This document shows positions 7,378 to 51,024 of a DNA stretch of 64,000 nt, one piece after another. The stretch is from Actinomycetes bacterium (GTDB taxonomy: Bacteria; Actinomycetota; Thermoleophilia; Gaiellales; Gaiellaceae), in assembly GCA_025358355.1 (NCBI GenBank), contig JANYJX010000014.1, forward strand, positions 2,893 through 66,892, in the 5' to 3' direction. The stretch's first letter is position 1; each line of letters begins with the position of its first letter. The translations under genes were made by a program, and so were the position numbers. Under the pieces are notes generated by a model. The model was not told the origin of the DNA, searched no databases, and worked only from the letters and a program-made list of their open reading frames with translations.

Positions 7378-7387
7378 GGGCGCGATG

Positions 7388-8209: not shown

Positions 8210-8238
8210 CGCAAGCGGACAGTACGCTTCCGGCGCGG

Positions 8239-8889
8239 ATGTCCCGAACGCGCGCTGTCATCTTCGACTTCAACGGGACGCTCTCCCACGACGAGCCCAT
8301 CCTGCTCCGGATTTACCAGGAGCTCTTCGCCGCGCACGGTCGCCCGCTTACCGCGAACGACTACTTCTCGCAGCTCGCCGGCAATACCGAGGAGGCGATC
8401 ATCCAAGGCTGGCTCGACGTCGACGGTAACGAGCTGGAGGCGCTCGTGGCGGAGCGGATCTCGCGCTACCGCGCTGCGGCAGACGGCGCAACCGTACCGG
8501 AGACGATCCGCGATGCGGTTCGCTTCGCCGCGGCGCGCGGGCCGGTGGCGATCGTCTCGGGTGCGTTCCGCGCCGAGATCGAGCCTGTGGTCGCTGCGGC
8601 CGAGTTGACCGAGCTGTTCGCCGCCGTCGTCACCGCCAACGACGTCGTGAACGGGAAGCCGGCGCCCGATGGCTACCTCCGCGCGCTGTCTCTTCTCGGC
8701 GATCTTCCGCCCGCTGAAGTCGTCGCGTTTGAAGACACGGAGGCGGGCGTCGCGTCGGCCAAAGCGGCCGGGCTGCGTTGCATCGCCGTCCTCGGGACGC
8801 TCCCCGCCGCACGGCTCGCCGCAGCCGACGAGATCGTGGAGCGCATCGATGCCGCGCTGCTCGCGCGCCTGCTCGATCCCCGCCCGTGA
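8239..8889 (+). CDS. HAD family phosphatase
   Basis: VIFDFNGTL, IVSGA, GKPAPD and AFEDT motifs; start placed at ATG 8239. Confidence 0.9.
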   Translation: MSRTRAVIFDFNGTLSHDEPILLRIYQELFAAHGRPLTANDYFSQLAGNTEEAIIQGWLDVDGNELEALVAERISRYRAAADGATVPETIRDAVRFAAARGPVAIVSGAFRAEIEPVVAAAELTELFAAVVTANDVVNGKPAPDGYLRALSLLGDLPPAEVVAFEDTEAGVASAKAAGLRCIAVLGTLPAARLAAADEIVERIDAALLARLLDPRP

Positions 8890-14898: not shown

Positions 14899-16071
14899 CT
14901 AGTCGTCCAATGTCGTGGTCTCGGGGGCCTCGGGCGGCTCGGGCTGATCGGATGTCTCCGAGCTCGGCGCGCTGAGGGCGACCGAGGGTGACACCGGCGT
15001 CGACGGTGCTGCCGGCGGCGGGACAGCTCCGTCTGTTGGCGCGCCGCTCGGCGGAGGTGCGACTGGCGGTAGGCCGCCATGATCTGTCGGCGCGGCGGCG
15101 GGAGAGTTGGCAGGATCGCTCGGCGCCGGATCATTCGTCGTTGAGGCAGGCGGCGGAGCTTTGAGGCTGCGATCCCCCATCCGCGTCGGCGCCGCAGCGG
15201 TTACGAGCATCCGAACGGGCAACACAGCCGCCTGCGGCACAGAAACGCGTTGGGCTTTCACCGCCACGTCTTTCCGCACGTATTGCGCCGGACGCTGTGG
15301 GACGAGGGCCGCCTGAGCAACTATGGTTGGCGCCGGGACAGGTGCGGCCGAAGCAACCGGCGAAGGCGCATGTCGACCGAGCCCGGCCGAACTGGCAACG
15401 ACAAGCGCAGCTCCGGCACCGGCCGCCGCAAGCTTGGCGGCGATCGGCAGCGACGCCAGCTTTGCGAGCGTCCCCATTGCAGGCTGATCAAATCCGGGGA
15501 TCAGTCGCGCGAGCTGGTCGCGAAGCGCCACTGGGACGAGCAGACCGTTCACGCCGCTGAGCGCGCGCCGCAGGCTCGTGCGAGCCCGGAAGAGCAGCGA
15601 GTCGACCGCCGGTTCGCTCACCCCGAGCGCGAGCGCCAACTCGCTGTACGAGAGACCGGCGAACTCGCGCAACATGAACGCCTCGCGTTGCGGCCGTGAC
15701 AACGCCTCGAGCCCCGCTCGCAGGACAGCGAAATCCGCGTTGCGCTCGGCGAGCTCGAGCGGATCGGCCTGCGGCGACGGAACCTCGTGCAGCGCGAGCG
15801 GTTCGCGCATCCGCAGCTTGATCCTCGACCAGCACTCGTTGCGGGCGATCGCCGCGAGCCACGCCGCCGGCTCCCGCGGCACTGCGCCACCAAGCAAGCT
15901 GCGATAGGCAGACAGGAACGACTCCTGCGCCGCATCCTCCGCCTCCGTCACATCTCGAAGCAGGAAACGACAAAGCCCAAGGACGGTTCGCCCATGGGCT
16001 TCGTACAGCGCAGCGACCCGGACACCAGCGTCCGGGTCGCACGCCTCAAACAGCTGCTGACTAACGGTCAC
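14899..16071 (-). CDS. ECF sigma-70 factor with fused TM segment and long Pro/Ala-rich C-terminal extension
   Basis: AEDAAQESFL, WLAAIARNEC (region 2) and QREAFMLREFAGLSYSELA...SLLFRAR (region 4); start GTG 16071 inferred. Confidence 0.85.
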   Translation of the reverse strand: MTVSQQLFEACDPDAGVRVAALYEAHGRTVLGLCRFLLRDVTEAEDAAQESFLSAYRSLLGGAVPREPAAWLAAIARNECWSRIKLRMREPLALHEVPSPQADPLELAERNADFAVLRAGLEALSRPQREAFMLREFAGLSYSELALALGVSEPAVDSLLFRARTSLRRALSGVNGLLVPVALRDQLARLIPGFDQPAMGTLAKLASLPIAAKLAAAGAGAALVVASSAGLGRHAPSPVASAAPVPAPTIVAQAALVPQRPAQYVRKDVAVKAQRVSVPQAAVLPVRMLVTAAAPTRMGDRSLKAPPPASTTNDPAPSDPANSPAAAPTDHGGLPPVAPPPSGAPTDGAVPPPAAPSTPVSPSVALSAPSSETSDQPEPPEAPETTTLDD

Positions 16072-16921
16072 CGCCGCCGCCGTCACCACTGCCGCTGCCA
16101 CCTCCGTCACCTGAACCCTGGTCACCTGAACCGCTGCCAGAGCCGTCGTCGCCGGGGCCGGCTTGGTCGCCGCCGCTGCCGTCGTCCGCGCCGGGCTGTC
16201 CGTCATCACCGGAGCCGCCCTGGTCATTACCCTGGTCCTCGCCAGCTTGAACCGAGTCGACCGACACGAGTGTGAAGACGTTGTTCGCATCGACGGACAC
16301 AGACAGCTCTACCTCGTCACCGATGGCCAACGTAGCCGGGAGCAGAGTCGGATCGGACACCGTGATCGAGATCGGCAGGCCTTCCACATTCACGACTAAC
16401 GGCGACACCGTCACGACCTGACCCTCGACCTCGACGGTCGTCGTCGTGCCGAGCGCTTTCGCCGATGTCTCGCGCACACCGCCCTTGCCAATCGCAACAC
16501 CGAACCGCGCGATCGAGCCCGGGGCGAGCCCTCGAGAAGCAAACGATCGTGTAGCGCTGCGACGTCCGATCGCGATCACGCTACCACCCGTCGAGACCAG
16601 CGTCCGGCTCGCCAGCCGCCGAATCACGACGCCCTGAACCATCGCGCTGCGCACGTGGCCGAGCACCCGGAGAGAACTCGCGCTCACCGTTCCATCGCTC
16701 AACTTCGCGCCGCCGACCCGGATTCGATCTCCGAGCCGCACCGCCGCGAGCCGCGCGTGCACCGTCCGCGCCGCGCCCGACTGGGTTGCCACAACCAGCG
16801 TCCCACGCTTCGCTTCCTTCGCGACAACGACACCGGTGAACGTCGAGCCGGCCGCATGCGCGGCAGCTGGGATAACAGCCGCGGCCATGACCGCAAACGA
16901 AAGGATCAATCTCGTACGCAC
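16061..16921 (-). CDS. Exported protein with repeated OB-fold-like (DUF5666-like) domains and a Gly/Asp-rich tail
   Basis: AGGAG RBS, signal peptide MRTRLILSFAVMAAAVIPAAAHA, GDxVxV-type repeats and a low-complexity GD tail. Confidence 0.6.
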   Translation of the reverse strand: MRTRLILSFAVMAAAVIPAAAHAAGSTFTGVVVAKEAKRGTLVVATQSGAARTVHARLAAVRLGDRIRVGGAKLSDGTVSASSLRVLGHVRSAMVQGVVIRRLASRTLVSTGGSVIAIGRRSATRSFASRGLAPGSIARFGVAIGKGGVRETSAKALGTTTTVEVEGQVVTVSPLVVNVEGLPISITVSDPTLLPATLAIGDEVELSVSVDANNVFTLVSVDSVQAGEDQGNDQGGSGDDGQPGADDGSGGDQAGPGDDGSGSGSGDQGSGDGGGSGSGDGGGGDR

Positions 16922-23084: not shown

Positions 23085-25865
23085 ATGGCGACCGCTAAGA
23101 CGCAAGGCACGAGCTCCAGCACCACCCCCGCCGAAACCACGGCGGAGTACGTCAACGCCGTCGTTGACGCGGGAGCGCATGTCGCTCCGCGCCGCTTCTT
23201 CACGATCCCGGGCCGCGACCCGTTCGACGAGATCGAGTGGGAGCTCCGTGACGCGCTGATCCCGGGCAAGGACGGCCCGGCGTTCGAGCAGCGAAACGTC
23301 GAGTTCCCCAAGTTCTGGTCGCAGACGGCCACCAACATCGTCGCGCAGAAGTACTTCCGCGGCCGGCTCTCCTCGCCTGAGCGCGAACGTTCCGTCAAGC
23401 AGATGGTCGGCCGTGTCGTCAACACGATCGGCGGCTGGGGCCGCGCGGGCGGTTACTTCGCGACCGACGACGAGGCCGACACGTTCGAGGCCGAGCTGAA
23501 GGCGATCCTGGTCAACCAGTACGCCTCGTTCAACTCGCCGGTCTGGTTCAACGTCGGCTTCGAGGAGAAGCCGCAGTGCTCCGCGTGCTTCATCCTCTCG
23601 ATCGAGGACTCGATGGACTCGATCCTCGACTGGATCCGGCGCGAAGGCGTGATCTTCCGCGGCGGCTCCGGCTCGGGCGTCAACCTCTCGCGGCTGCGCT
23701 CATCGAAGGAGCAGCTCTCGAAGGGTGGCTACGCGTCGGGCCCGGTCAGCTTCATGCGCGGCGCCGATGCGTCGGCCGGCACGATCAAGTCGGGCGGCAA
23801 GACACGGCGAGCGGCGAAGATGGTCGCCCTCGACATCGACCATCCGGACGTCGAAGAGTTCATCTGGTGCAAGGCCAAGGAAGAGCGCAAGGCGCGCGTC
23901 CTCGAGCAGGCGGGCTACGACATGTCGCTCGACTCGCCCGACTGGTCGTCGATTCAGTACCAGAACGCGAACAACTCGGTGCGTGTCACAGATGCCTTCA
24001 TGGAAGCGGTCGTCGAGGGCAAGGACTGGAACCTCACCGCCCGCACCGACGGCTCCGTCGTCGACACGATCGACGCGCGCAGCCTTATGCGCGCCATCGC
24101 CGAGGCGTCGTGGCAGTGCGCCGATCCGGGTGTGCAGTACGACACGACGATCAACGCGTGGCACACGCTGCCGAACACCGCGCGGATCAACGCGTCGAAC
24201 CCGTGTAGCGAATACATGTCGATCGACGACAGCGCCTGCAACCTCGCGTCGCTCAACCTGATGAAGTTCCGCAAGGAGGACGGCGAGCTCGACGTCGAGA
24301 TGCTCGAGCACGCGGTCGACGTGATGTTCCTCGCGCAGGAGATCGCCGTCGGCTACTCCTCGTATCCGACGCCTGAGATCGGCCGCAACGCCGTCCGGTT
24401 CCGTCAGCTCGGGTTGGGCTACGCGAACCTCGGCGCGCTGCTGATGGCGCGGAGCTTCCCGTACGACTCCGACGGCGGCCGTGCGTATGCCGCCGCGATC
24501 ACTGCGTTGATGACGGGCCGCGCGTACCGCAAGTCGGCCGAGATCGCGAAGCGGATGGGCTCGTTCGACGGTTACCGCGAGAACGCCGCAGCGATGATCG
24601 GCGTGATCGCGAAGCACCGTGCCGCCGTTGGGAACATCGACCACGCAAGCTCCGTGCCGGCCGATCTGCTCGGCGCGGCGCGCAAGGCCTGGGACGACGC
24701 GCTCGACCTCGGCGAGGTCGCCGGCTTCCGCAACGCGCAGTCGACGGTGCTCGCGCCGACCGGGACGATCAGCTTCATGATGGATTGCGACACGACTGGC
24801 GTGGAGCCCGACTTCTCACTGGTGAAGTCGAAGAAGCTCGTCGGCGGCGGCGAGATCACGATCGTCAACAAGACGGTGCCGATGGCGCTCGACAAGCTCG
24901 GCTACACGCCGAGCGAGGTCGACGACATCGTCGCGTTCATCGACGAGCGGAACACGGTCGTCGGCGCACCGCACCTGAAGACCGACCACTACCCGGTCTT
25001 CGACTGCGCGATCGGCGAGCGCGCGATCCACTACATGGGGCACGTGAAGATGATGGGCGCCGTCCAGCCGTTCATCTCGGGCGCGATCTCGAAGACGGTG
25101 AACCTGCCCGAGACGTCGACGATCGACGATGTCGGCCAGCTGCTGATCGAGGCGTGGCAGCTCGGTGTGAAGGCGATCGCGATCTACCGCGACAACTGCA
25201 AGGTCGCGCAGCCGCTGTCGGGCTCGAAGGACAAGAGCGAGGCTGGCATCGCCGGCACCTTGATTCCCATTGGCGTCCTGCCGCATCCGAAGCGGCGCCG
25301 CGTGCCCGAGGATCGCACTGAGGTCGGCCGCAAGTTCAAGGTCGGCGAGTACGAGGGCTACATCCACGTCGGCCTGTTCGACGATGGCACGCCGGGCGAC
25401 ATCTTTGTCGACATCGCGAAGGAGGGCACGACGCTCGCCGGCTTGATGAACTCGTTCATGATCTCCGTCTCGCTCGGCCTGCAGTACGGCGTGCCGCTCG
25501 AGGTGTACGTCTCGAAGTTCAGCCACATGCGCTTCGAGCCGTCGGGGATGACGAACGACGCCGACATCCGCGTCGCAAAGTCGATCGTCGACTACATCTT
25601 CCGCTGGATGGGCAAGAGGTTCCTGACGACCGACCAGCAGGAGGAAGCGGGCATCCTCACGGCCGAGGTGAAGGCGCGTCTCGCAGCCGCGTATGCGACG
25701 GGCGAAGCGGCGCCGGCGGCGCTCGAGCCCGCCCCGCCAGGCCAGACGGCGCTCTTCAACACGTGGGAAGACGCAGTCGAGTGCGCCAGGTGCGGCGGCA
25801 GCATGGTGAGGACCGGCAGCTGCTACACCTGCCGCGACTGCGGCACCAACACCGGCTGCTCGTAG
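23085..25865 (+). CDS. nrdJ: Vitamin B12-dependent (class II) ribonucleotide reductase
   Basis: QCSACFI, NASNPCSE, CNLASLNL, APTGTISF and ISKTVN motifs; C-terminal TSCPD-like domain and Zn ribbon ending GCS; GGAGG RBS. Confidence 0.95.
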   Translation: MATAKTQGTSSSTTPAETTAEYVNAVVDAGAHVAPRRFFTIPGRDPFDEIEWELRDALIPGKDGPAFEQRNVEFPKFWSQTATNIVAQKYFRGRLSSPERERSVKQMVGRVVNTIGGWGRAGGYFATDDEADTFEAELKAILVNQYASFNSPVWFNVGFEEKPQCSACFILSIEDSMDSILDWIRREGVIFRGGSGSGVNLSRLRSSKEQLSKGGYASGPVSFMRGADASAGTIKSGGKTRRAAKMVALDIDHPDVEEFIWCKAKEERKARVLEQAGYDMSLDSPDWSSIQYQNANNSVRVTDAFMEAVVEGKDWNLTARTDGSVVDTIDARSLMRAIAEASWQCADPGVQYDTTINAWHTLPNTARINASNPCSEYMSIDDSACNLASLNLMKFRKEDGELDVEMLEHAVDVMFLAQEIAVGYSSYPTPEIGRNAVRFRQLGLGYANLGALLMARSFPYDSDGGRAYAAAITALMTGRAYRKSAEIAKRMGSFDGYRENAAAMIGVIAKHRAAVGNIDHASSVPADLLGAARKAWDDALDLGEVAGFRNAQSTVLAPTGTISFMMDCDTTGVEPDFSLVKSKKLVGGGEITIVNKTVPMALDKLGYTPSEVDDIVAFIDERNTVVGAPHLKTDHYPVFDCAIGERAIHYMGHVKMMGAVQPFISGAISKTVNLPETSTIDDVGQLLIEAWQLGVKAIAIYRDNCKVAQPLSGSKDKSEAGIAGTLIPIGVLPHPKRRRVPEDRTEVGRKFKVGEYEGYIHVGLFDDGTPGDIFVDIAKEGTTLAGLMNSFMISVSLGLQYGVPLEVYVSKFSHMRFEPSGMTNDADIRVAKSIVDYIFRWMGKRFLTTDQQEEAGILTAEVKARLAAAYATGEAAPAALEPAPPGQTALFNTWEDAVECARCGGSMVRTGSCYTCRDCGTNTGCS

Positions 25866-26403: not shown

Positions 26404-26990
26404 GGAGTGTTCCGCCCAAACAAGTTCGAGAGGTGAACCGCAAGCACATTGTCCATGGTAGTCGCGAGTCCGCTCAGTGCACTTCTCCAGGATCTGACCG
26501 TGGCGAGAGTCGGGGGATAACCTTCACTGCGCAAGATGTCTAGCTCGTCCAACCGTGCGTGCGCTATCGCGTTCCGGGCACGGTTCAAGCGTTCGAGCTG
26601 CTGCTGCCGCACGGGTGTCCGCTCATCGCGGTTTGCGAGAGTAGGCCACCAGTCGACTCCGAGACGGCCAAACGCGTCTCCCAACGAACCAGGTTCGGCG
26701 TTTCCTCGGTCTAGCTTCAAGCCGACGGTGAGCGAGGTACGAACCGTTCTCTCTAGGCCAGGATTGCCGTTCGCAGCCCACTCGGCGAAAGTACCCACCC
26801 CCTCACCGTGGAGATCGCGAGCGAACCCTTGGAACTCAGCGGCGAGACGCAGGACAAGCGCCCAGTTGATTTGCTCGGTTCGGGTGCGGCGACCTCGTTC
26901 GGCACCGCCAACTCGCTCGTGAGCACCGAGTAGCTCGTCGAGCCGCCGGGCTCGCGCAACTCGCCAAGTGGAAAGAGCGGCTGATGCCAC
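26397..26990 (-). CDS. HEPN-domain protein (putative RNase)
   Basis: Helical 197-aa protein with the R-x4-H motif RNAIAH (26559-26576) and an upstream AEFQGF segment; TAGCCT 7 nt before GTG 26990. Confidence 0.7.
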   Translation of the reverse strand: MASAALSTWRVARARRLDELLGAHERVGGAERGRRTRTEQINWALVLRLAAEFQGFARDLHGEGVGTFAEWAANGNPGLERTVRTSLTVGLKLDRGNAEPGSLGDAFGRLGVDWWPTLANRDERTPVRQQQLERLNRARNAIAHARLDELDILRSEGYPPTLATVRSWRSALSGLATTMDNVLAVHLSNLFGRNTPW

Positions 26991-27075
26991 GGCACCGAGG
27001 CTAGCTACCGAGCGAGGACTATTCCATTGGTCACTTGTGACATGTCCTGTCGCCGCCGGTCGTAGGATCTGGGTC

Positions 27076-27972
27076 GTGCGCGATGAGGACATCCGCAGCT
27101 CGTGCTTCAATTCTCTTGCCGTGCTCTGCGCGCAGTTCGGTGACGACGTCCCGTACAAAGACGGCCTCGATCGCGGGTTCGCATTCCGGGGGACGCGCGT
27201 TCCGTTCTTGACCTACCAGAAGGGCATCTACCGGGCAGCCGCGCAACGCGGGCCGGCGGCGCTCTCGATCAACACGTCGTACGTCTCGCCGTACGAAGAC
27301 GAGCAGACAGACGCCGGCTTCCTCTACGCCTACCGCGCGGGGTCAATCGATCAGCCCGACAACCGGGCGCTCCGTGCGGCCTGCGAACTCCAGGTGCCGC
27401 TCGTCTACTTCATCGGCACACGACCTGGGTGGTACCGGCCTGTGTTCCCGTCCTACGTGATCGCCGACGATCCTGCCGCCCGTCGCGTCACCGTGGGCGT
27501 CGGCGTCATGGCCGGGCCGCTCGACGATCAAGAGGCCGTCATCGCCGAAGACCCGATCGAGCGCCGCTACGCAGTCCGTCAGACGAGAACGCGACTCCAT
27601 CAGGCACGGTTCCGTGGCCGAGTGTTGCCCGCGTACGGAAGTCAATGCGCGATCTGTCGGCTCAAGGAGGCGCGGCTCCTCGATGCCTCACACATCCTGG
27701 GCGACCTCGACGAGCGTGGCGACGCTGTCGTGAGCAACGGTCTCAGCCTGTGCTCGATCCACCACCGCGCGTTCGACCAAGACCTGGTTGGCGTCTCGCC
27801 GGACTACGAGGTTCGAGTCGCTCCGCGGCTCCTCGAAGATGAGGACGGACCAATGCTTGAGCTGCTCAAAGGCTTCAACGGTCAGCCGATCGTCGTACCT
27901 AAGCGCCGCAGCTGGCAGCCGGACCGGAACCGTCTGGCTGCCCGCTTTGACCGTTTCGTCGCGGCCTCCTGA
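27076..27972 (+). CDS. HNH endonuclease with SRA-like N-terminal domain (putative type IV restriction enzyme)
   Basis: CAIC...DASHI...NGLSLCSIHHRAFD HNH core; N-terminal PYEDE...YAYRAG...DNRAL. Confidence 0.8.
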   Translation: MRDEDIRSSCFNSLAVLCAQFGDDVPYKDGLDRGFAFRGTRVPFLTYQKGIYRAAAQRGPAALSINTSYVSPYEDEQTDAGFLYAYRAGSIDQPDNRALRAACELQVPLVYFIGTRPGWYRPVFPSYVIADDPAARRVTVGVGVMAGPLDDQEAVIAEDPIERRYAVRQTRTRLHQARFRGRVLPAYGSQCAICRLKEARLLDASHILGDLDERGDAVVSNGLSLCSIHHRAFDQDLVGVSPDYEVRVAPRLLEDEDGPMLELLKGFNGQPIVVPKRRSWQPDRNRLAARFDRFVAAS

Positions 27973-38815: not shown

Positions 38816-39544
38816 CTATGCCGGTTCCAACGCGCTGGGCCGGAAGCGTGCAAGCAAGCGACCGACGACCGGCCCGAGCAAGACGACCGAGCCGTCGATC
38901 ACCGCGTAGCCGGCCGCAATCGCCGACGGAGGATTCCCCGACGGGATGCCCGTCCACGGCGCCTGCGCAGCCCAAGCCCAGTCGCCGGCCCAGGTGCCGA
39001 CGATCTCGATCGCCGTCGTCGCGAGCCAGATCCCGGCGAACATATCGCCGCGCCCGGAGCGCAAGATGCACCAGGCGAAGAGCGGTAACAGCAGCGCGCC
39101 CTGCACATCGACCCGGCCCGTCAGCGGAATGAGCACCGTCACGCCAGCAAGCGCCCACGCCGAGCAGATCGCGAGCACCGTGAGCCGAACCCGCCGGCCG
39201 TGCCGCTGGACAACCGGCAGCGTCGCCGCGGTGATCCCGAACAGATAGACGAGCGCATGCCCCGGCGGGACGTACAGTGGGATGTTGCGTAGCCGGTAGG
39301 TGTAGCCGCCCCAGACGAGCGAGCCGAGCGCCTCGAATCCCGTCGCGAGCGGCACCGTGAGCCACAGCTGAACCCGCTGCAACCCCTCGACGCGGTGCGA
39401 GAACGCCCACAGCACGCAGAAAGCGACGAGCCCGAGCGCGAGTTGTGGGCCGAGCCCGCCGAAGATCCCGTCCGAGACGAGCATCGCCACCGTGAACGCG
39501 AGCAGGAACGCATGCATCCCGTACGGTCGGATCGCGTCACGCAT
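38816..39544 (-). CDS. Integral membrane hypothetical protein
   Basis: About 7 hydrophobic segments; YRLRNIPLYVPPGH and GNPPS motifs. Confidence 0.65.
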   Translation of the reverse strand: MRDAIRPYGMHAFLLAFTVAMLVSDGIFGGLGPQLALGLVAFCVLWAFSHRVEGLQRVQLWLTVPLATGFEALGSLVWGGYTYRLRNIPLYVPPGHALVYLFGITAATLPVVQRHGRRVRLTVLAICSAWALAGVTVLIPLTGRVDVQGALLLPLFAWCILRSGRGDMFAGIWLATTAIEIVGTWAGDWAWAAQAPWTGIPSGNPPSAIAAGYAVIDGSVVLLGPVVGRLLARFRPSALEPA

Positions 39545-39627
39545 CGACGTTCCATTCGCCGCAACGGCTGAGCCAGGTCGGCTGTCGAGCGGTGACACGG
39601 CGATACGGTAGCCGCGCCGCCGAGAAT

Positions 39628-39843
39628 CTAACTCGGCTTGCGCGAGAGCCAGTAGCGCAGGAAATAGACCGGCACAACCACACCGGCCGCGAGAAACGCG
39701 CCGACGCCCCACGCGGTCGCGTGCGTGTTCCCATGCTTGTCCGCGTGTCGGAAGACCGCCATCGAGATCGCCGCTGCGATGACGACCGCAAGCACGAACG
39801 CGGGCGGATTGGGCAGAGCAGTGAGAAGCACGTACGACAGCAT
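39628..39843 (-). CDS. Small two-TM membrane protein
   Basis: MLSYVLLT...AVFRHADKHG...WGVGAFLAAGVVVPVYF. Confidence 0.6.
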   Translation of the reverse strand: MLSYVLLTALPNPPAFVLAVVIAAAISMAVFRHADKHGNTHATAWGVGAFLAAGVVVPVYFLRYWLSRKPS

Positions 39844-39859
39844 CGCACGCGTGGGCCTA

Positions 39860-40022
39860 AGAGCTCGAATCAAAATGAGACCTTGTGTCGCCGGGATGGG
39901 CTGTGCACGCATGCTGCCGCGTCCTCAGTCGCGTGAATAGCGCTGCTATTCACGCTCCCTGGTCCTTGCATAGCACGCGCCCATCCCATCCCGACGACGA
40001 AGCTCATTCTGATTCGAGCTCT
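39860..40022. mobile_element. 163-bp MITE-like element flanked by TA
   Basis: Terminal IRs AGAGCTCGAATCA(A/G)AATGAG match 19/20; TA at 39858-59 and 40023-24; internal perfect 11-bp hairpin at 39931-39955; no ORF of note. Confidence 0.75.
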
Positions 40023-40024
40023 TA

Positions 40025-40950
40025 GGGCCTATCCCGCTTGGGCGTGGGCGAGTCGGGCGGTATGGGCTTTCTTGAAGGCGATCAGGCCGCTGGCGAGTTG
40101 GAGCAGGGCAAGGTGGTTGGCGTCTTTCTTCGACCAGCGGATCAGGATCGCGCGGTTGCGGTTGAGCCATGAGTGGCAGGCCTCGACGACCCAGCGGCGC
40201 GCTTTCCAGCCGGGGGTGCTGGCTTTGAGCTCGATCTCGTCACGGCGCGTGCGAATGTGCGGCATGAGTCCGTACTCGCCGACCAGCTTGAGCGAGTCGG
40301 CGTTGTTGTAGGCCCCGTCGAGGCAGATACCCTGCGGCCGCTTCTTGGTCGGGGCGGGCCGCTCGATCGGGATCGACTCGAGCGTGCCCTTCAGCAGCTT
40401 GTGGTCGTTGCGCTAGGCGCCCTCGTGATCGAGTCCGATCGGGACTCCCTTGCCTTCGCTGAGGACCGACCGTTTCGCCCCCTTTTAGCTCTGCCGGTCG
40501 GATTCGGGCCGGTCTTCGGGCCGCCCAGCGGCGCCTTGGTCATCGCACCGTCGGCCGCCAGCCAAGCCCAGTCGATCCCGACGACTTCGTCGTAGTCCAG
40601 CAGGCCCTGCCGCCAGAACTCGTGGAACACCCCGGCCTGCTCCCACTCCTGAAAGCGCCGATGCGCCGCCAACGACGAACAGCCGTCGGTCACGTTGAGC
40701 GCGTTCCACTGCATCCCCGTCCTGAGCACCAACAAGATCGCGTCCATCGCATCACGGTTCGACACTCGCGGGCGATGACAGCCCAACGGGTGCGGCGGCG
40801 GCGCCGGCAACAGCGGCTGCATCAGCTCCCACAGCCAATCCGGGATCCGCCAACCATCATCCTTGCACCAAGACCCATGCCCGCCTCCCTCATTGACGAC
40901 GAAGAAGACTCCGCCGTCAAGCCACGGGCCCCTCCAAGCGGGATAGGCCC
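40025..40950 (-). mobile_element. IS5-family insertion sequence (IS427-like two-ORF type), inactive
   Basis: Perfect 17-bp IRs GGGCCTATCCCGCTTGG, TA on both sides, 926 bp long. Confidence 0.88.
40029..40878 (-). pseudogene. IS5-family transposase with frameshift and nonsense mutation
   Basis: DDGWRIPDWLW, LRTGMQW, DGAMTKAPLGG, AAAAGGGGG slip site, CLDGAY and RRWVVEACHSW. The RBS/ATG at 40878 is out of frame with the body, and there is a TAG at 40413-40415. Confidence 0.85.
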
Positions 40951-41297
40951 TAAGTCAGCTGCGAGTCATCCCGGGTGAGCGAGCCGAAGCCGATCTGCAT
41001 CGCTGCGACGTAGGCGCGACTCGGTCGTTCCAGGAGCGTCTCCTTCGGCGCCACAGGCGCGGGCGCGGCAGCGCTTGCCTGGCCGCGAAGCGCATCGATG
41101 CGCCCGTGCAACTCGCTTCGGTGGCGAGAGACCTCTTTCTCCTCGAGCTCGAGCTTGGCGAGCCGCTCGGCGCCGTCCGGGTCGTGGACGCCGCTGCCGC
41201 GGATGAAGTCGATCCGCTCATGCAGCCGCCGACGCCGCTGCGAGACCGCGCGCTCCTCCTGCTCGAGACGGGCCAGACTGCTAGCGGTATCCGGCAT
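40950..41297 (-). CDS. RsiG-like protein with two E-x3-S-x2-R-x3-H-x3-D motifs
   Basis: EERAVSQRRRRLHERID and EEKEVSRHRSELHGRID, 38 aa apart, in coiled-coil-like helices. Confidence 0.7.
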   Translation of the reverse strand: MPDTASSLARLEQEERAVSQRRRRLHERIDFIRGSGVHDPDGAERLAKLELEEKEVSRHRSELHGRIDALRGQASAAAPAPVAPKETLLERPSRAYVAAMQIGFGSLTRDDSQLT

Positions 41298-41357
41298 ATT
41301 CGGGTTATCGACAGGCGACGGCCACAGTTGACCGTCGCGCCGGCATCGCATCAATCA

Positions 41358-42905
41358 TCAGGCGGGTGAGGGGTGGTCGTCGCCGAGCCAGCCGAGCCGG
41401 ATCGCCGACGCGACGGCTTGAGTCCGCGAACGGGCGTCGAGCTTGGCCATGGAGCGACGCACGTGCGTCTGCACCGTCTCCTCTGCAATACCGAGCTGGA
41501 TCCCCACCTCGGCGCTCGTTTTCCCCTCGGCGAGCAGGCCGAGGATCTCCCGCTCGCGAGGGCTGAGCGAGCCGGATATCGGATGCCGAGATCGTAGATC
41601 GGTCGCCTCAAGCTCGCGGCGCTTACGCTCGTCGATGTCGAGGATCTGGGCGACGGAATACGCCGGAGAACCGTCATCGTCGCGGACGAGGGAGATGCTG
41701 AGATGGATCCAAACCACCGATCCGTCCTTGCGTAAGTAGCGCTTCTCCAACTGGTACGAGCTGATTTCGCCTCCCAGCAGACGCTTGCCGAACGCAAGGT
41801 CCTCGGCGAAGTCATCCTGGTGGGTGATCTCGTGCCAGCGCATCGTCAGCAGCTCGCGGGACGTGTAACCGATCATCCGGCATAGCGCTTCGTTGACTTT
41901 CAACCAACGCCCGTCGGGCGACGTCAGACCCATGCCGATCGGGGCTGCTTCGAAGGCGCCGCGGAAGCGCTCCTCGCTCTCCCGCAAGGCGCGCTCCGCG
42001 CGCCGATGCTCGCGCAGATCGCGCATGAGAGCATGGACGCCGAGCACGGAGTCGCCGTCGCGCAACGCTGTCGACGTCACCTCGACCGGGATGCGGTTGC
42101 CGGCGGAGTCGACCACGACGTACTCGTAGCGGCTACTGACACCTTCCCCTTTGAGCTTCGCCTCCACGCTTTGCTCCACGACGTCCACCCACTCGGGAGC
42201 GGCAAACGCAGCCGGGCTCTTGCCGATCAGCTCGTCGACCCTGCACCCGAGCATCCGGCAGGCCGCGGGATTGGCGTCGGTGATACGAGCCGTCGCGTCG
42301 GCGACGAAAACAGCGTCGCTCGACGTCTCGAAGAACAGTCGCTGCCGCGCGTGCTCGACCCGCATCGCCTCGGCGGCACGCGCCCGCTCGATCATCCGGC
42401 CGAGCTGGATGCCGACCGTCTGCATCAGGCTGAGCAGCTCGTCGTCGCGATCGGTCGGCGTCGTGGCGTAGAACTCGAGCACTGCCGCCACCTCCGAACC
42501 GGCGAGCACCGGAAACGCAAAGGCGCTCCCGAGACCCGCGGCCTTAGCCGCGTCGGCGCGGAAGAAGTTCGGGTCGCGGGAGACGTCCTCGACCCAGACC
42601 GCTGTTCTCGTGCCGAGCACGCGCCCGACAAGGCCCTGCCCGACGACGAACGAGATCGACTCGGATGCTTGGCGGAACGCCACAAACCGGCGCGGATCTT
42701 CGACATGCCAGAGACGAGTCGGCTCGGCACTGCCCGAAGAGACGACGAAGGCGTGGCCGACGGACGACCCGATGAAGGTGCAGATCAGCGTGAGTACTTT
42801 CGGGAGCGCTCGCTCGACGCCCTCTTCGTCATTCGCGATCGCCGTGATCGCGGCGAGGAAGTGGAGCAGCCGAGCCGGGGACTGAGTCGCGTTGCAGTGC
42901 TGCAT
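41358..42905 (-). CDS. GAF-PAS-PAS-LuxR transcriptional regulator
   Basis: GAF (GQGLVGRV...DPNFFR), two PAS domains (DANPAAC; KVNEALC...EKRYLRKDG) and LSPREREIL...TVQTHVRRSMAKL; AAGGAG RBS. Confidence 0.9.
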   Translation of the reverse strand: MQHCNATQSPARLLHFLAAITAIANDEEGVERALPKVLTLICTFIGSSVGHAFVVSSGSAEPTRLWHVEDPRRFVAFRQASESISFVVGQGLVGRVLGTRTAVWVEDVSRDPNFFRADAAKAAGLGSAFAFPVLAGSEVAAVLEFYATTPTDRDDELLSLMQTVGIQLGRMIERARAAEAMRVEHARQRLFFETSSDAVFVADATARITDANPAACRMLGCRVDELIGKSPAAFAAPEWVDVVEQSVEAKLKGEGVSSRYEYVVVDSAGNRIPVEVTSTALRDGDSVLGVHALMRDLREHRRAERALRESEERFRGAFEAAPIGMGLTSPDGRWLKVNEALCRMIGYTSRELLTMRWHEITHQDDFAEDLAFGKRLLGGEISSYQLEKRYLRKDGSVVWIHLSISLVRDDDGSPAYSVAQILDIDERKRRELEATDLRSRHPISGSLSPREREILGLLAEGKTSAEVGIQLGIAEETVQTHVRRSMAKLDARSRTQAVASAIRLGWLGDDHPSPA

Positions 42906-43083
42906 GTGGCGCTCCTTCGGGTTCCGTGTACTGGGTTCCGGGGATGCGAACGGAATCGACTTCCCTCGTCCGGACCGGCAATCCCCTTTCCGGGGGGTGC
43001 TGCATACCCGGAACGAACCGATTCTGGGTCTCGGGCCGACAACAGGCCGTAACCGAATTCGGGGACAACCCCGAGGAGGCTCG

Positions 43084-43455
43084 ATGACCTTCCTTCGCAG
43101 ACCCAGCCGGACGCTGATCGTGGCCATCCTTGCGCTCTCGATCGGCGCAGGCGCCTACGCCTACGCCGCGACCAACACGGTGCCGAGTAGCACGGCCGGC
43201 TCAGGCTCGGGCACGATCAGCGGCTACACGGTGAGCAGCATCGCGTACACGCTGAACGCAACGACGCCTACGAACCTCGACCAGGTCGCGTTCACGATCG
43301 CGCCGGCAGCCGCGACCACCGTCAAGGTGCAGCTCGCCGCCGCGGGATCGTGGTACAGCTGCACGAACACCGCGGGCAGCGTCACGTGCACCACGACGTC
43401 GCCTCAGGCCACGGCTGTCGCCGCGACCCAGCTGACAGTCGTCGCAGCACAGTAA
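43084..43455 (+). CDS. Secreted Ser/Thr-rich beta protein, putative SipW substrate (fibre subunit candidate)
   Basis: GAGGAGG RBS; signal peptide ending AYAYA, then ATNTVP; two Cys. Confidence 0.75.
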   Translation: MTFLRRPSRTLIVAILALSIGAGAYAYAATNTVPSSTAGSGSGTISGYTVSSIAYTLNATTPTNLDQVAFTIAPAAATTVKVQLAAAGSWYSCTNTAGSVTCTTTSPQATAVAATQLTVVAAQ

Positions 43456-43457
43456 CG

Positions 43458-43982
43458 ATGTCGACGGTCGTCGTACCGGCCACGTTTGACGAGTCGGTCC
43501 GCGAACGGTTCTCGCGCACGCGTACGGCTCTGTCAGTCGCACTCGCCGCCGCGGCGTTCGCCGCCACCTGGTGGTACGTCGCGCCGCCACAGCTTGGAGG
43601 CTCGACCTCGTTCGTCACGGTGGACGGCACGAGCATGCTGCCGACGCTCCGGCTGTCGGATCTCGTCGCGTTGCGGCCACCAAGCGCCTACCGCATAGGC
43701 GATGTCGTCGGCTACCGGAGTGGGCTGATCCACCGCGTCGTCCTTCACCGGATCGTTGCGATTCACGACGGCCGCTACGTGTTCAAGGGCGACAACAACT
43801 CTTTCATCGATCCCGACCGGCCGACGCGATCGCAACTCGTCGGACGTCTTTGGCTCCACGTGCCGTCGGCCGGCCGACTCGTCTCGCAGCTCCACCGACC
43901 CCCTGTCGCGGCGGCGCTTGCCGTCCTGCTCGTGCTCGCGGCCGGCCTCGGCGGCGGCACGAAACGACGGCGCTCGACCTAG
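43458..43982 (+). CDS. sipW: Signal peptidase I, SipW/archaeal-ER type (Ser-His)
   Basis: DGTSMLP, GDVVGY, VLHRIV and KGDNN..ID motifs; TM segments at both ends. Confidence 0.85.
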   Translation: MSTVVVPATFDESVRERFSRTRTALSVALAAAAFAATWWYVAPPQLGGSTSFVTVDGTSMLPTLRLSDLVALRPPSAYRIGDVVGYRSGLIHRVVLHRIVAIHDGRYVFKGDNNSFIDPDRPTRSQLVGRLWLHVPSAGRLVSQLHRPPVAAALAVLLVLAAGLGGGTKRRRST

Positions 43983-43992
43983 AGCGACCGCT

Positions 43993-44376
43993 ATGGCCAG
44001 ATGTCTCCTTCGGCTGGTGCTCGTCATCGGCGTCTTGGCCCTCGGCTTGACGAGTACAGCGCTGAGCGCGAGCAACACCGTTCCCGGCACGACGGTCACA
44101 CGCTTCGTGACAACGATCACCGCGGACAAGCTGAAACCATCCAGCTGCTCCGGTATCACGCTGACAACGGTTGTCGCGGGAGTGACGGGCACGAGCGGCG
44201 CGGATCTCCTGCTCGGCTCGGCGGCGGCCAACGTTATGAGCGGAGGCGGCGGCAACGACTGCATTCTCGGCGGCGGCGGCAACGACACGATCAGCTGCGG
44301 CACCGGCACGGATGTCGCGATCGGCGGTCCCGGCACCGACACGTTCAACGCCGACTGCGAGACGCAGATTCAGTAG
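43993..44376 (+). CDS. Secreted protein with RTX-like Ca-binding nonapeptide repeats
   Basis: Signal peptide ending TALSA, then SNTVP; GGGGNDCIL, GGGGNDTIS and GGPGTDTFN repeats; four Cys in the mature part. Confidence 0.78.
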   Translation: MARCLLRLVLVIGVLALGLTSTALSASNTVPGTTVTRFVTTITADKLKPSSCSGITLTTVVAGVTGTSGADLLLGSAAANVMSGGGGNDCILGGGGNDTISCGTGTDVAIGGPGTDTFNADCETQIQ

Positions 44377-44382
44377 CTGGAG

Positions 44383-45328
44383 TCAGCGCTCATACGTGAC
44401 GACGCCCTGAACGGCATCGTCACTCGCTGCGAGCGTGGCAGCGTCGAGCTGCAAACCCGACGCGGCGGCATTCCCGTCGAGCTGCTCGGCGCGGCTGACC
44501 CCGACGATCGCCGAAGCAACGTTCGGCTTTTGGAGGACCCACGCGAGCGCTAGCTGCGAGAGCGCAACACCGACCCCTTCAGCAACCGGCTTCAACCGGT
44601 CGACGGCGGCGAGCACGTCGTCGGCGAGGACGCGGCCGATTGCCCAGCCCATCTTCTCGGAGCTCGCTCGCGTACCAGCCGCAGGTTTGTCGCCCGCGCT
44701 GTACTTGCCGGTGAGCGCGCCCTGCGCGAGCGGCGACCAGACGATCTGCGAGATGCCGTTCGCGGCGCAAACATCGATCCCGGCGCGCGGTAGAGCAGCG
44801 AGTACTCCGGCTGGCTCGAGACGAACTTCTCCATCCCGGGCAAGTCGAGCGCCGCCTGGATCTGCGCGGGCGTCCACTCGCTGAAGCCGATGGTCCGCGC
44901 CTTGCCTGCCCGCACCACCTCGGAGTTCCCGTCCATCGTCTCTTCGAGCGGCGTGTCGGCGTCGTAGCGATGGCACTGGTAGAGGTCGACGGAATCTGTG
45001 CGGAGCCGTGCGAGCGATGCGTCGATCTGCTTCTCGACCTGAGCGCGCGAGAGGCCCTTGTCGGTATCCGACAGCGGGAATGTAGAGCTTCGTCGCGAGG
45101 ACGTAGGAGTCGCGAGGCCTCGCTGCGAGCGCCTCGCCGAGGAGCTCTTCAGCGGCGCCGCGGTTGTCGACGTTCGCTGTGTCGATGAAGTTGATTCCGA
45201 GCTCGAACGAGCGATCAAACGATCGCGCGCGCTGTCTCGGCGTCGATGCCGCTGCCGAGCGTGAGCCAGGAGCCGAGGGCGATCTCCGAGACGATCAGAT
45301 CGCTCGCTCCGAGGCGGCGGAACTCCAT
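44383..45328 (-). pseudogene. Aldo/keto reductase pseudogene
   Basis: MEFRRLG...LGSWLT, INFIDTANVD (catalytic Tyr replaced by Asp), DLYQCHRYD and IVWSPLAQG are spread over several frames. Confidence 0.85.
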
Positions 45329-45373: not shown

Positions 45374-46348
45374 GTGGAGAGGCGAGCGCTCGGCAGGAGT
45401 GGATTCGAGGTCACGCGGATCGTCCTCGGCTGCGGCAACTTCGGCGGTGTGGGCTCGTCGCCCGGGTTCTTCGGACAGGGCATCGCGAAGGACGAGGCGT
45501 TCCGGATCATGGACACGGCCTGGGAGCTCGGCATCCGCACGTTCGACACCGCGGACGCCTATGGCGGCGGTCGCAGCGAGACCTGGATCGGCGAGTGGCT
45601 TCGTACGAAGCCGCAGGCGGTCCGCGACGAGCTCGTGCTCCAGACGAAGACTTTCAACGCGATGGACGAGGGCGCAGATCGCGGACTATCGCGCGCGCGC
45701 ATCCTGCGCCAGATCGACACGAGCCTCGCGCGGCTCGGCGTGGAGCAGGTCGCGCTCTACATGACGCACGCGTTCGATCCCGACACGCCGCAGGAGGAGA
45801 CGCTGCGCGCCCTCGACTCGCTCGTGCGCGCAGGCAAGGTCGGCGCCATCGGCGCTTCGAACTTCAACGCGGAGCAGCTTGCCGAGGCACTCGAGATCTC
45901 GCAGCTGGAGGAAAGCGCGCGCTACGAGTGGCTACAGAACTCGTACTCGCTGCTCGATCTCGACGACGTCGAAACGGTTCTGCCACTGATCCGCGACCGT
46001 GGGCTCGGGTATGTCCCGTTCAGCCCGCTCGCCGGCGGTTGGCTCACCGGGAAGTACCGCCGAGACGAGCCGTTCCCGGCTGGCTCGCGCATGACGCAGC
46101 GGCCCGAGCCGTACGAGGAATTCCGCACCGACCGAGTCTTCGACGCCCTCGAAGCGCTAGAGGCCGAGGCGACCGAGCGTGGCGTCTCGATGGCAGGTCT
46201 AGCGCTGGCCTGGCTGCTCGGGCAGCCAGAAGTTACCGGCGTCGTGGTCGGCCCCGGTCGCGCGGAGCACCTTGCGCCAGCGACCGAGGCGATCAGGCTG
46301 AACCTGACCGCTGCAGACGTGTCCCGACTGACGGAGGTGTTTGCGTGA
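45374..46348 (+). CDS. Aldo/keto reductase
   Basis: LGCGNFGG, FDTADAYGGG and PFSPLAGG motifs; TAGGCT 6 nt upstream. Confidence 0.92.
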   Translation: MERRALGRSGFEVTRIVLGCGNFGGVGSSPGFFGQGIAKDEAFRIMDTAWELGIRTFDTADAYGGGRSETWIGEWLRTKPQAVRDELVLQTKTFNAMDEGADRGLSRARILRQIDTSLARLGVEQVALYMTHAFDPDTPQEETLRALDSLVRAGKVGAIGASNFNAEQLAEALEISQLEESARYEWLQNSYSLLDLDDVETVLPLIRDRGLGYVPFSPLAGGWLTGKYRRDEPFPAGSRMTQRPEPYEEFRTDRVFDALEALEAEATERGVSMAGLALAWLLGQPEVTGVVVGPGRAEHLAPATEAIRLNLTAADVSRLTEVFA

Positions 46349-48829: not shown

Positions 48830-49963
48830 GTGCGCACGATCACCGCAACCGCGCTCCGACGCCTCGTTGTCGCCGCCCAAGGGTACGCGGGGCGCCGGAG
48901 GACAGCCACCACGCGCGAGGTCGCTGACACGATCCGGCAGCTCTCGTGCGTTCAGCTCGATTCGATCTCGACCGTCGAGCGCAGCCACCGGATTGCGATC
49001 TCGTCGCGGGCCGGCCAGTACCCGTCCGAGGTCATTTCGCGTCTCCTCGGCAGCGGGCGAGTCTTCGAGTACTGGGCGCACGAGGCGTGCTTACTGCCGG
49101 TCGAGGACTGGCCGCTGTTTGCCGGAGCGATGCAGAACGGGGGGCGGCACTGGTACGGCGAGGTCGATCGGACGCACCCGCATCTCGCAGACGAGATCCT
49201 GGGCGAGATCCGTTCGCGCGGCGCGCTCGGCGCGCGTCATTTCGAGGGCGCGTCGGAGGGCGGGATGTGGAACTGGAAGCCGGCGAAGGCGATGCTCGAC
49301 CGGCTGTGGAATCGCGGCGAGCTCGTGATCGCCGGCCGGCAGGGGTTCCAGCGGCTGTACGACCTGCCGGAGCGCGTGCTGCCGAGCGCCGTGCTCGACG
49401 CGACGCCCGCCAGCGAAACCGAGCGCCTGCGCGTGCTGACGCTCAAGGCGGTCGCGGCGCGAGGCGCGCTCACCGAATCCGGCATCGTCGAGCACTGGCG
49501 TTTGCGAGGGGGCGTCGCGCGGATCCGCTCGACGGTCGACGGCCTGGTTGCCGATGGCCTGCTCGAGCGGCTGCAGGTCGACGACGGCGGCACGCCGGTG
49601 ATCGTGGCGGCGGGGGCTGAGCTGGATCGTCCCGCGCCCGCGGCGGCCGTGATGCTCTCGCCGTTCGACAACCTCCTCTGGGATCGACCGTTCGCGCGCC
49701 GCGTACTCGGCTTCGACCACCTGATCGAGGTCTACAAGCCAGAGCCGCAGAGGGTCTACGGCTACTACGTGCTGCCGTTTCTCTGGCGCGATCGGATCGT
49801 CGGCCGGGCCGACCTCAAGTCGGATCGCGCGAACGGGACGCTCATCGTCAAGGCGTTCCATCGCGAGCAAGGCGTCCGCGCGTCGGGCGCGCTCGACGAC
49901 GCGTTTGACCGCGCTCTCGACCGGCTGCGCGCGTCGATCGGGCTGGAGCGCGTGCAGCGGTGA
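48830..49963 (+). CDS. YcaQ/AlkZ-like crosslink-repair DNA glycosylase (HTH_42)
   Basis: VQLDSI...RSH, FEYWAHEA, MWNWKPAK, LSPFDNL and YGYYVLPFL motifs. Confidence 0.88.
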   Translation: MRTITATALRRLVVAAQGYAGRRRTATTREVADTIRQLSCVQLDSISTVERSHRIAISSRAGQYPSEVISRLLGSGRVFEYWAHEACLLPVEDWPLFAGAMQNGGRHWYGEVDRTHPHLADEILGEIRSRGALGARHFEGASEGGMWNWKPAKAMLDRLWNRGELVIAGRQGFQRLYDLPERVLPSAVLDATPASETERLRVLTLKAVAARGALTESGIVEHWRLRGGVARIRSTVDGLVADGLLERLQVDDGGTPVIVAAGAELDRPAPAAAVMLSPFDNLLWDRPFARRVLGFDHLIEVYKPEPQRVYGYYVLPFLWRDRIVGRADLKSDRANGTLIVKAFHREQGVRASGALDDAFDRALDRLRASIGLERVQR

Positions 49964-51024
49964 GGCTCGTCTCGGTCGAGGAAGCGCGGCGGATCGCGGT
50001 TCGCTCGCAGCTGCTGGACGGCGCAGCGACGGACGTGCCTGGCACGGTTCGCCAGCTCGGCTTCCTGCAGATCGACCCGATCGCGACCGTCGCCACGCCA
50101 CAACACCTGGTTCTCTGGAGCCGGCTCGGGCACTACGACACCGCCGAGCTCGACCGGCTGCTGTGGGAGACGAAGGAGCTCTTCGAGTGGCACGCCTTCA
50201 TCCGGCCGATCGAGGAGCTGCCGCTCGTCCGCGCATTCGAGCGCCGGTGGCGGACATCGACCCGGTACCACAGCGAGCGCTGGGTGCGCGGGTTCCTCGC
50301 CGAGAACCGCGCCTTCCGCCGCTACGTGCTCCGCGAGATCGCCGAGCGTGGCCCACTGCTCTCGCGCGAGCTGGAGGATCGGGCGGCGGGCGACCCGCGC
50401 GATCACCGCTGGTGGGGCTCACGGCGCGTCGGCCTGATGCTCCAGTCGCTGGATCTCTATGGCGAGATCGCCGTCGCTGGCCGGCGCGAGGGCCAGTGCC
50501 TCTGGGATCTCGCCGAGCGCTGGCTGCCCGCGACCGAGACGCTCTCGACGAAGGCCATGGAAACGCGCCACGCTGAGGCGAGGTTCCGCGCGCTCGGTGT
50601 CCGCCGCGCCGCGGCCGGCTGGGAGGCGCATCCGGATGCCGTCGACGGACCGGTTCCCGAACGGGCCACGTTTCTCTCACCGTTCGACCGCCTGGTCCAC
50701 GACCGCGACCGCGCCGAGCGGCTGTTCGACTTTCACTACCGCCTCGAGATGTACGTGCCGAAGGCGAAGCGCGAGTACGGCTACTACGTGCTGCCAATCC
50801 TCCGCGGCGACCAGCTGATCGGCCGCATCGAGCCAGTCTTCGAGCGCAAGACCGGCGTGCTGAACGTGAACGGCGTCTGGGCGCAGCCCGGTGCGCCAGC
50901 CAACGCCGGCGCAGATATCGGCAGAGCGCTTCGCGAGCTGGCCGGCTGGCTCGGAGCCAGCAAGATCACCGTGGGCTCACAAGTTCCGCGCGCCTGGGCC
51001 AAGGCGCTGCGCGCGTCCGTCTAG
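49960..51024 (+). CDS. Second YcaQ/AlkZ-like glycosylase
   Basis: LQIDPI, LSPFDRL and YGYYVLPIL motifs; GTGA overlap with its paralog. Confidence 0.88.

Follow-up and report, generated by a model that had tools for sequence, protein, structure and literature searches.

Within a 64-kb stretch of contig JANYJX010000014.1, from an Actinomycetes bacterium classified in the Gaiellaceae (assembly GCA_025358355.1; hereafter the window, meaning the whole stretch analyzed), we found a gene for an RsiG-like protein of 115 amino acids (aa) at positions 40950..41297 of the minus strand. The protein carries twice, in one short chain, the motif with which RsiG binds cyclic di-GMP (c-di-GMP), and on balance we favor its being a single-chain "mini-RsiG" receptor of this second messenger. 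In RsiG, two E(X)3S(X)2R(X)3Q(X)3D motifs displayed on an antiparallel coiled coil hold a dimer of c-di-GMP, and crystal structures show the ribose bound by Glu and Ser, the central guanines recognized by Arg, and the outer guanines stacked on by Gln and read along their Watson-Crick faces by Asp (PMC8325347, PMC7005675). The two motifs of the Streptomyces venezuelae protein (RsiG_Sv) lie 98 residues apart (PMC8325347, PMC7005675), and five homologues with a single motif, which homodimerize, are known from Rubrobacter, Thermoleophilum, Patulibacter, and Conexibacter (PMC8325347). An earlier note on this DNA had mentioned single-motif homodimers from Rubrobacteria and Thermoleophilia, in agreement with these papers (PMC8325347, PMC7005675).

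Both the list of open reading frames (ORFs) and the sequence place the ATG of the gene at 41297 and its TAG stop codon at 40950-40952. This ATG was favored over an upstream TTG at 41354 because the homologues open with M-[PA]-D-T, and the protein begins with MPDTASSLARLEQEERAVSQRRRRLHERIDFIRGSGVHDPDGAERLAKLELEEKEVSRHRSELHGRIDALRGQ. Numbered from this Met, motif 1 is E15-x3-S19-x2-R22-x3-H26-x3-D30 (ERAVSQRRRRLHERID; 41208..41255, minus strand) and motif 2 is E53-x3-S57-x2-R60-x3-H64-x3-D68 (EKEVSRHRSELHGRID; 41094..41141, minus strand), with an offset of exactly 38 residues. These exact repeats of one spacing had been read from the letters in the earlier note, and both the ORF and a six-frame motif scan confirmed them. 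Across the six frames of the whole window, the pattern E-x3-S-x2-R-x3-[HQ]-x3-D occurs at two sites only, both within this ORF, against 0.18 sites expected from amino acid frequencies, and no double motif arose when the protein was shuffled 200,000 times. The GC content at third codon positions is 0.81 (67.7% GC for the window), the bias expected of a real gene, and the ratio of nonsynonymous to synonymous substitution rates is 0.23 to 0.52 against five homologues; the gene is under purifying selection. In 56 homologues, E15, S19, R22, and H26 of motif 1 and S57, R60, and H64 of motif 2 are invariant, and E53 and D68 are conserved in at least 90%. All five ligand-contact positions are retained on both helices. 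DNA of the window was found in sediment metagenomes (public DNA runs), the gene was absent from the RNA sequencing runs searched, and a generic promoter and terminator scan around it gave nothing useful.

Judged by sequence and motif, the protein belongs to the RsiG family. The search against an RsiG profile that had been proposed in the earlier note gave 39.9 bits with the Pfam family PF22802, "RsiG-like" (E = 3.5e-10, in two matched stretches), well above the gathering cut-off of 27 bits, and all but a few of the family members that we found have a precomputed match to PF22802. Among NCBIfam models, none matches either this protein or the longer forms of Gaiella described below. When a profile of the 56 homologues was compared with solved structures, the best matches were RsiG_Sv (6pfj_T; E = 3.3e-4) and the RsiG of Rubrobacter radiotolerans (RsiG_Rr; 7lq2/3/4; E about 1e-3), and the remaining ones were generic coiled coils only, at E values of 0.06 or worse, leaving RsiG as the sole solved structure matched below E = 0.01. 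The single sequence matched the Rubrobacter structure at an E value of about 0.03 only. At this level, the resemblance of the family to the solved RsiGs is weak but specific. Both motifs have His in place of Gln, a change already pointed out from the sequence and, as it turns out, a published RsiG variant, since Gallagher et al. reported that Gln75 is often His in homologues and gave the motif as E(X)3S(X)2R(X)3[Q/H](X)3D (PMC7005675). Given that the published motif allows either residue, the change is no departure from RsiG.

The 115-aa protein is one member of a large family of compact twin-motif proteins and no one-off. An initial homologue search retrieved 72 proteins, of which 47 were full length (106 to 132 aa, 56 to 97% identical) and shared a common C-terminal tail, the remainder being forms of 77 to 96 aa without the tail and the forms of 153 to 156 aa from Gaiella. 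A profile search over 1.84 billion representatives, clustered at 50% identity, yielded 538 clusters at E ≤ 1e-3 and 147 at E ≤ 1e-10. Two motifs 32 to 41 residues apart were present in 128 of the 150 best clusters (lengths 71 to 271 aa, median 98.5 aa). The spacing was 38 residues in 57 of these compact clusters and 39 in another 38 (95 of 128 together), as expected if both motifs must face each other. His/His was the commonest pair at the Q/H positions (168 of 197 twin-motif sequences), and the E, S, and R of both motifs were invariant in 131 diverse members. Among the matches listed, all members come from metagenomes or metagenome-assembled genomes (MAGs), the only taxon names attached to them are Gaiella sp., Gaiellaceae, and Gaiellales (an order of the class Thermoleophilia), and the closest genome match is a syntenic Gaiellales MAG with 70% identity. 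Scans of the loci confirmed at least nine in genomes and at least 16 in metagenomes. Among the MAGs with such a gene are GCA_038230035.1, GCA_936415005.1, and GCA_038237305.1. A homologue search started from a divergent compact member (P0198) returned two proteins only. A twin-motif RsiG with a short linker was not described in any paper that full-text literature searches turned up.

To obtain a structural model, we ran AlphaFold2 with the 56-sequence alignment and expressed its confidence, the predicted local distance difference test (pLDDT), as means of 10-residue blocks. The prediction is a helix-loop-helix hairpin, with pLDDT values of 92 to 95 across both motifs and 73 to 82 at the helix ends and loop. 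Helix 1 spans residues 2-34 (41196..41294, minus strand; pLDDT 94 to 95 over the motif and 81 to 82 at its ends) and helix 2 residues 40-77 (41067..41180, minus strand; 92 to 95 over 41-70 and 73 for 71-80). They are joined in the model by a loop of five residues (35-39, SGVHD; 41181..41195, minus strand), and the motifs are thus predicted to sit on the two helices of an antiparallel hairpin. What had been described as a compact twin-motif RsiG-like form with a very short linker therefore holds, with two exact motifs, the PF22802 match, and a predicted linker of five residues. The heptad positions of the sequence tell a similar story: the a/d core pairs L8-L70, L11-I67, I29-L49, and I32-L46 all have a residue-number sum of 78. 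With this register, E15 and R22 would face L63 and V56, and E53 and R60 would face L25 and V18, a pairing that would be two-fold pseudo-symmetric about the loop, as in a homodimeric RsiG; the spacing of 38 to 39 residues kept in the family would fit this constraint.

Beyond the hairpin, residues 78-115 form a conserved C-terminal tail (PKExLLExPxxAYVAxMxxGFGSLTRDD; 40953..41066, minus strand), defined from the homologue alignments. It was modeled at low confidence (pLDDT 41 to 63), with a short helix at 94-101, and is present in only about 4 of the 150 best clusters. We consider it a likely candidate for a partner-binding element. Its segment APKETLLERP resembles by eye PSPETLERP, which follows helix 1 in the Gaiella 156-aa proteins, as well as the segments after the helix in RsiG_Rr and RsiG_Sv; this resemblance was dropped as evidence, a tail-only profile scoring at most 0.1 bit on such RsiG-like segments.

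Like RsiG_Sv (6PFJ/6PFV), the 115-aa protein has two [Q/H]-type motifs in one chain and, as predicted, on two antiparallel helices, and both fall in the same Pfam family, in which His is accepted for Gln. They differ in the offset between motifs (38 versus 98 residues), in size (115 aa versus the 176-residue chain in 6PFJ), and in internal similarity: the two motif segments of our protein, 28 residues each, share 50% identity, compared to 37% for α1 and α5 of RsiG_Sv in the same computation (33% for the whole helices, by its authors' figure [PMC7005675]). The RsiGs of R. radiotolerans and of cultured Thermoleophilia (7LQ2-7LQ4) are likewise small proteins of the same deep actinobacterial branch. 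Their motif helix is closely alike (EEKRISYRRRVMQGRID versus EERAVSQRRRRLHERID), and they present the ligand on an antiparallel coiled coil, as predicted here. However, the Rubrobacter type is a homodimer with one motif per subunit, whereas the 115-aa protein has both motifs in one chain, is predicted to form an intramolecular hairpin, and would need no homodimer. In addition, the N- and C-terminal sigma-binding extensions of the Rubrobacter protein give way to one different C-terminal tail.

Closer in taxonomy are the undescribed twin-motif proteins of 153 to 156 aa carried by Gaiella MAGs (L011-L015), which share both order and His variant with the 115-aa protein, with motifs 84 to 85 residues apart and the N-terminal "LSDDDL" lead-in typical of RsiG. 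As these MAGs carry them, twin-motif forms do exist in the class Thermoleophilia. In these Gaiella and unclassified Actinomycetes MAGs, the long form occupies a fixed position of the core genome (e.g., L011, 3210-3680), with the gene of an 838- to 924-aa nucleotidyl-transferase on one side and, on the other, that of a zinc-ribbon protein (likely FHA-type, by eye), followed by a MerR-like gene (FtsR-like, by eye). With profiles built from each helix of the query subfamily alone, helix 1 was assigned correctly in 95 and helix 2 in 91 of 119 other compact proteins (17 and 20, respectively, of 21 long-linker forms). When the query subfamily and the 156-aa proteins of Gaiella were scored against each other, each helix had its counterpart (helix 1 with helix 1, helix 2 with helix 2) as reciprocal best match, which implies one duplication before the compact and long-linker Gaiellales forms split. 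Both forms share that duplication, and their linkers differ in length by roughly 46 residues. The helices of Streptomyces and Rubrobacter scored low and ambiguously on both profiles and were placed with neither helix 1 nor helix 2; the duplication in Gaiellales may be independent of the Streptomyces one, as the earlier note supposed, or the same.

With these data, we infer that the protein binds c-di-GMP, is a monomer, and sequesters a partner. Two long helices with one motif each would fold back on each other through the five-residue loop, so that one chain could build the pseudo-symmetric antiparallel coiled coil for which Rubrobacter RsiG needs two chains and Streptomyces uses helices 98 residues apart. 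By homology, the motif face would clamp an intercalated c-di-GMP dimer, with Glu and Ser contacting the riboses, Arg reading the central guanines, His stacking on the outer guanines, and Asp reading their Watson-Crick faces. The loaded hairpin might then bind and hold a transcription regulator, the disordered but conserved tail perhaps folding onto it. As partner, the first candidate would be a WhiG-type sigma factor encoded elsewhere (by homology only) and the second the adjacent LuxR-type regulator.

Several observations weigh against a mini-RsiG. Similarity to the solved RsiGs is weak and comes mostly from the motif helix, and a Foldseek comparison of the model with the PDB returned generic helical hairpins only (E of 0.16 or worse). 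The compact proteins are without α2-α4 and the c-di-GMP-encircling loop (residues 104-125) of RsiG_Sv, and also without its Tyr after the motif Ser, which stacks on Tyr58 of WhiG. At this position (+5), the 115-aa protein has Q in helix 1 and R in helix 2, and the 128 compact clusters have A, R, K, D, or E. Neither phmmer over all stop-to-stop frames nor Pfam scans of about 50 ORFs detected a FliA/WhiG sigma factor in the window, just as the earlier note had stated. Searches by tblastn with WhiG_Sv (sequence from 6pfv) found none in 365 kb of related loci, and matches in the window to the WhiG-type promoter T[AC]AA-N16-GCCGA[TAA] are about as frequent as chance predicts. Finally, gene neighborhoods vary between members, and synteny points to no partner. 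For instance, tail-less members stand after a ClC channel gene, before an ArsR/Mrp operon, in overlap with a PAS-HisKA_3 kinase gene, or isolated.

It is conceivable, although we hold it only tentatively, that the compact hairpins constitute a minimal c-di-GMP receptor module that stands on its own, widespread in uncultured Thermoleophilia and related Actinomycetota, uncoupled from WhiG and serving various partners (LuxR/NarL-type regulators, histidine kinases, and pilus or matrix loci). For the receptor reading that we favor, two contexts point to c-di-GMP. In locus L032, a GAF-GAF-HD-GYP-GGDEF gene (5850-8615) lies 1 kb from the member P0038, while the 85-aa P0254 (JGI 3300047160) adjoins a GAF-GGDEF gene, an MshEN protein, and a type IV pilus cluster (PilM/N/O, T2SSF/PilC, and the T2SSE ATPase). 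In the window, the Pfam scans of the same ORFs revealed no GGDEF or EAL genes.

Less probable than our favored reading, in our judgment, is that of the earlier note, a true anti-sigma factor that, when loaded with c-di-GMP, sequesters a WhiG2-type sigma-28 factor encoded elsewhere, exactly as RsiG does. Membership of the RsiG Pfam family speaks for it, as does the rule that RsiG always occurs alongside WhiG in the genomes surveyed, with cultured Thermoleophilia having both (PMC8325347, PMC12871210). Moreover, WhiG touches the bound c-di-GMP directly, so that even a minimal hairpin could be enough to offer it the ligand, and the pilus cluster beside P0254 recalls the type IV pilus genes that form the WhiG regulon in Rubrobacter (PMC8325347). 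However, apart from the lack of a WhiG match in the window and in the 365 kb of related loci, the 115-aa protein has none of the sigma-gripping elements of known RsiGs (α2-α4, loop 104-125, and α6 of RsiG_Sv, the extensions of RsiG_Rr, and the conserved Tyr), the tail-less members of 71 to 90 aa have almost no surface besides the coiled coil, and the supplement of the published RsiG survey has no Gaiella entry. Near the Gaiella long forms, the tblastn searches with WhiG_Sv gave RpoD/SigB-like sigma factors only. The only sigma factor in the window is of the extracytoplasmic function (ECF) type (Sigma70_r2 and r4_2 in Pfam, TIGR02937 in NCBIfam; 463-aa ORF at 14899..16290, minus strand), 25 kb from the RsiG-like gene. 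An anti-sigma role is thus something that we only infer. The ECF ORF continues for about 220 residues past region 4 without a family match, and its true start may be further in.

A third reading, which we think improbable, is that of a co-regulator of the neighboring gene, the loaded hairpin binding the sigma-4-like helix-turn-helix (HTH) of a LuxR-type protein and coupling c-di-GMP to the divergent operon of sipW and a secreted protein. This neighbor, identified with Pfam as a GAF-PAS-PAS-LuxR(GerE) regulator, is encoded 60 bp upstream and in the same direction (41358..42905, minus strand; 515 aa from the start shared by its homologues, within an ORF that extends to 43127). Its GerE domain scores 63.9 bits, and the same HTH, residues 520-574 of the full 589-aa ORF (41358-43127), passes the Pfam thresholds of both Sigma70_r4 and Sigma70_r4_2, sigma region 4 being what RsiG binds. 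Divergently from it runs an operon on the plus strand (43084..43982), which encodes a secreted protein of 123 aa (43084-43455) and a signal peptidase I of the SipW/archaeal type (43458-43982; TIGR02228, 54.6 bits versus a cut-off of 51.85), a possible target of the regulator. The three-gene LuxR/sipW block recurs in the related loci L001, L002, and L004, and the RsiG-like and LuxR genes are co-directional and 44 to 60 bp apart in the window, L001, and L004. Comparable is the 77-aa member P0069 (L040, 500-1863), which overlaps by 4 bp the end of a gene for a PAS-HisKA_3 (NarL-type) kinase-like protein with no HATPase domain listed; this overlap suggests translational coupling. Nevertheless, the LuxR/sipW block is missing upstream of homologues with 56 to 67% identity in L033, L034, and the contig of P0044 and is therefore dispensable in relatives, a DUF421 gene separates the two genes in L002 and L032, and PAS and LuxR proteins are so common that adjacency is weak evidence.

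Least likely of all, because the ligand-contact residues are invariant at a fixed spacing, is a coiled coil whose polar stripe serves another use (another nucleotide, a metal, or protein contacts) without c-di-GMP: apo RsiG_Rr does coordinate Mg2+ through the motif Asp (PMC8325347), the fold search yielded generic hairpins only, and the automatic JGI names of the members disagree with one another, but hundreds of clusters retain the five contact positions in both helices, only RsiG among solved structures was matched below E = 0.01, and two members adjoin GGDEF genes.

RsiG is, to our knowledge, the only c-di-GMP receptor built on a coiled coil. If the mini-RsiG reading is true, single-chain hairpins of roughly 100 aa would rank as the smallest c-di-GMP-binding fold of their kind in nature and offer an easy target for biophysics and biosensor design. 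The published account of RsiG evolution rests on 135 homologues from cultured strains, the basal classes having dimers with one motif and the others long monomers with two. The compact hairpins, together with the 153- to 156-aa forms of the Gaiellales, would place twin-motif RsiGs already in the deepest actinobacterial classes and so revise the picture of single motifs only in these lineages. With at least 128 clusters at 50% identity from uncultured lineages, among the matches listed, the compact family could also serve to test whether the coiled-coil/c-di-GMP platform is bound to sigma-28 or is a general adaptor.

Downstream, the gene abuts an IS5-family insertion sequence of 934 bp (40021..40954) with perfect 21-nucleotide terminal inverted repeats (CTTAGGGCCTATCCCGCTTGG) and a transposase with the DUF4096 N-terminal domain. 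The end of this element overlaps, or itself provides, the stop codon of the RsiG-like gene, and the element parts the gene from its usual downstream genes. The transposase is split (40391-40822, with DUF4096, and 40029-40265), suggesting a frameshift. The contig L001, from a public run and with an identical gene, ends 48 bp past it, as expected at a repeat. Between the insertion sequence and the next gene lies an element of 177 bp (39853-40029) resembling a miniature inverted-repeat transposable element, with 27-nucleotide inverted repeats that are 93% complementary. That gene, delimited by alignment with L007, encodes a 71-aa protein with two transmembrane segments (39628..39843, minus strand) and is the usual next gene downstream in relatives. 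In the window it lies beyond the insertion sequence, whereas in the Gaiellales MAG used for this comparison (L007) the gap to the homologue is 5 bp. In L002, L004, L032, and L034 as well, a gene for 71 to 73 aa comes next after the homologue or within two genes of it. A membrane protein of about 280 aa (38816..39712, minus strand) without a Pfam or NCBIfam match is found downstream in these four loci and in L033 as well. Besides these downstream membrane proteins, the constant neighbors are a cupin, aldo-keto reductases, and a protein of about 600 aa. As the loci all belong to one lineage, this may be inherited synteny and not a functional link.

On the other side, the sipW operon (43084-43982) is flanked by small secreted proteins, to about 43990-44376, with signal peptides that end in A-[AS]-[TS]-N-x-VP, and the block resembles a tapA-sipW-tasA-like matrix or fiber operon. 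In L001, L002, and L004, the block includes one protein with a HemolysinCabind match. Further along, the aldo-keto reductase ORF at 44383-44976 (minus strand) covers only positions 176-288 of the 291 of the Pfam model and is probably a truncated gene or pseudogene. An intact paralogue is located at 45374-46348, and at least five aldo-keto reductase genes are present in the window. Two tandem genes for AlkZ-like DNA glycosylases (48830-51024) are kept in L002, L004, and L034. Elsewhere in the window, a 334-aa ORF with an HNH_2 endonuclease domain (26968-27972, plus strand) falls in a stretch of lower GC content at third codon positions, possibly mobile DNA, and upstream of it lies the gene of a class II ribonucleotide reductase (23085-25865).

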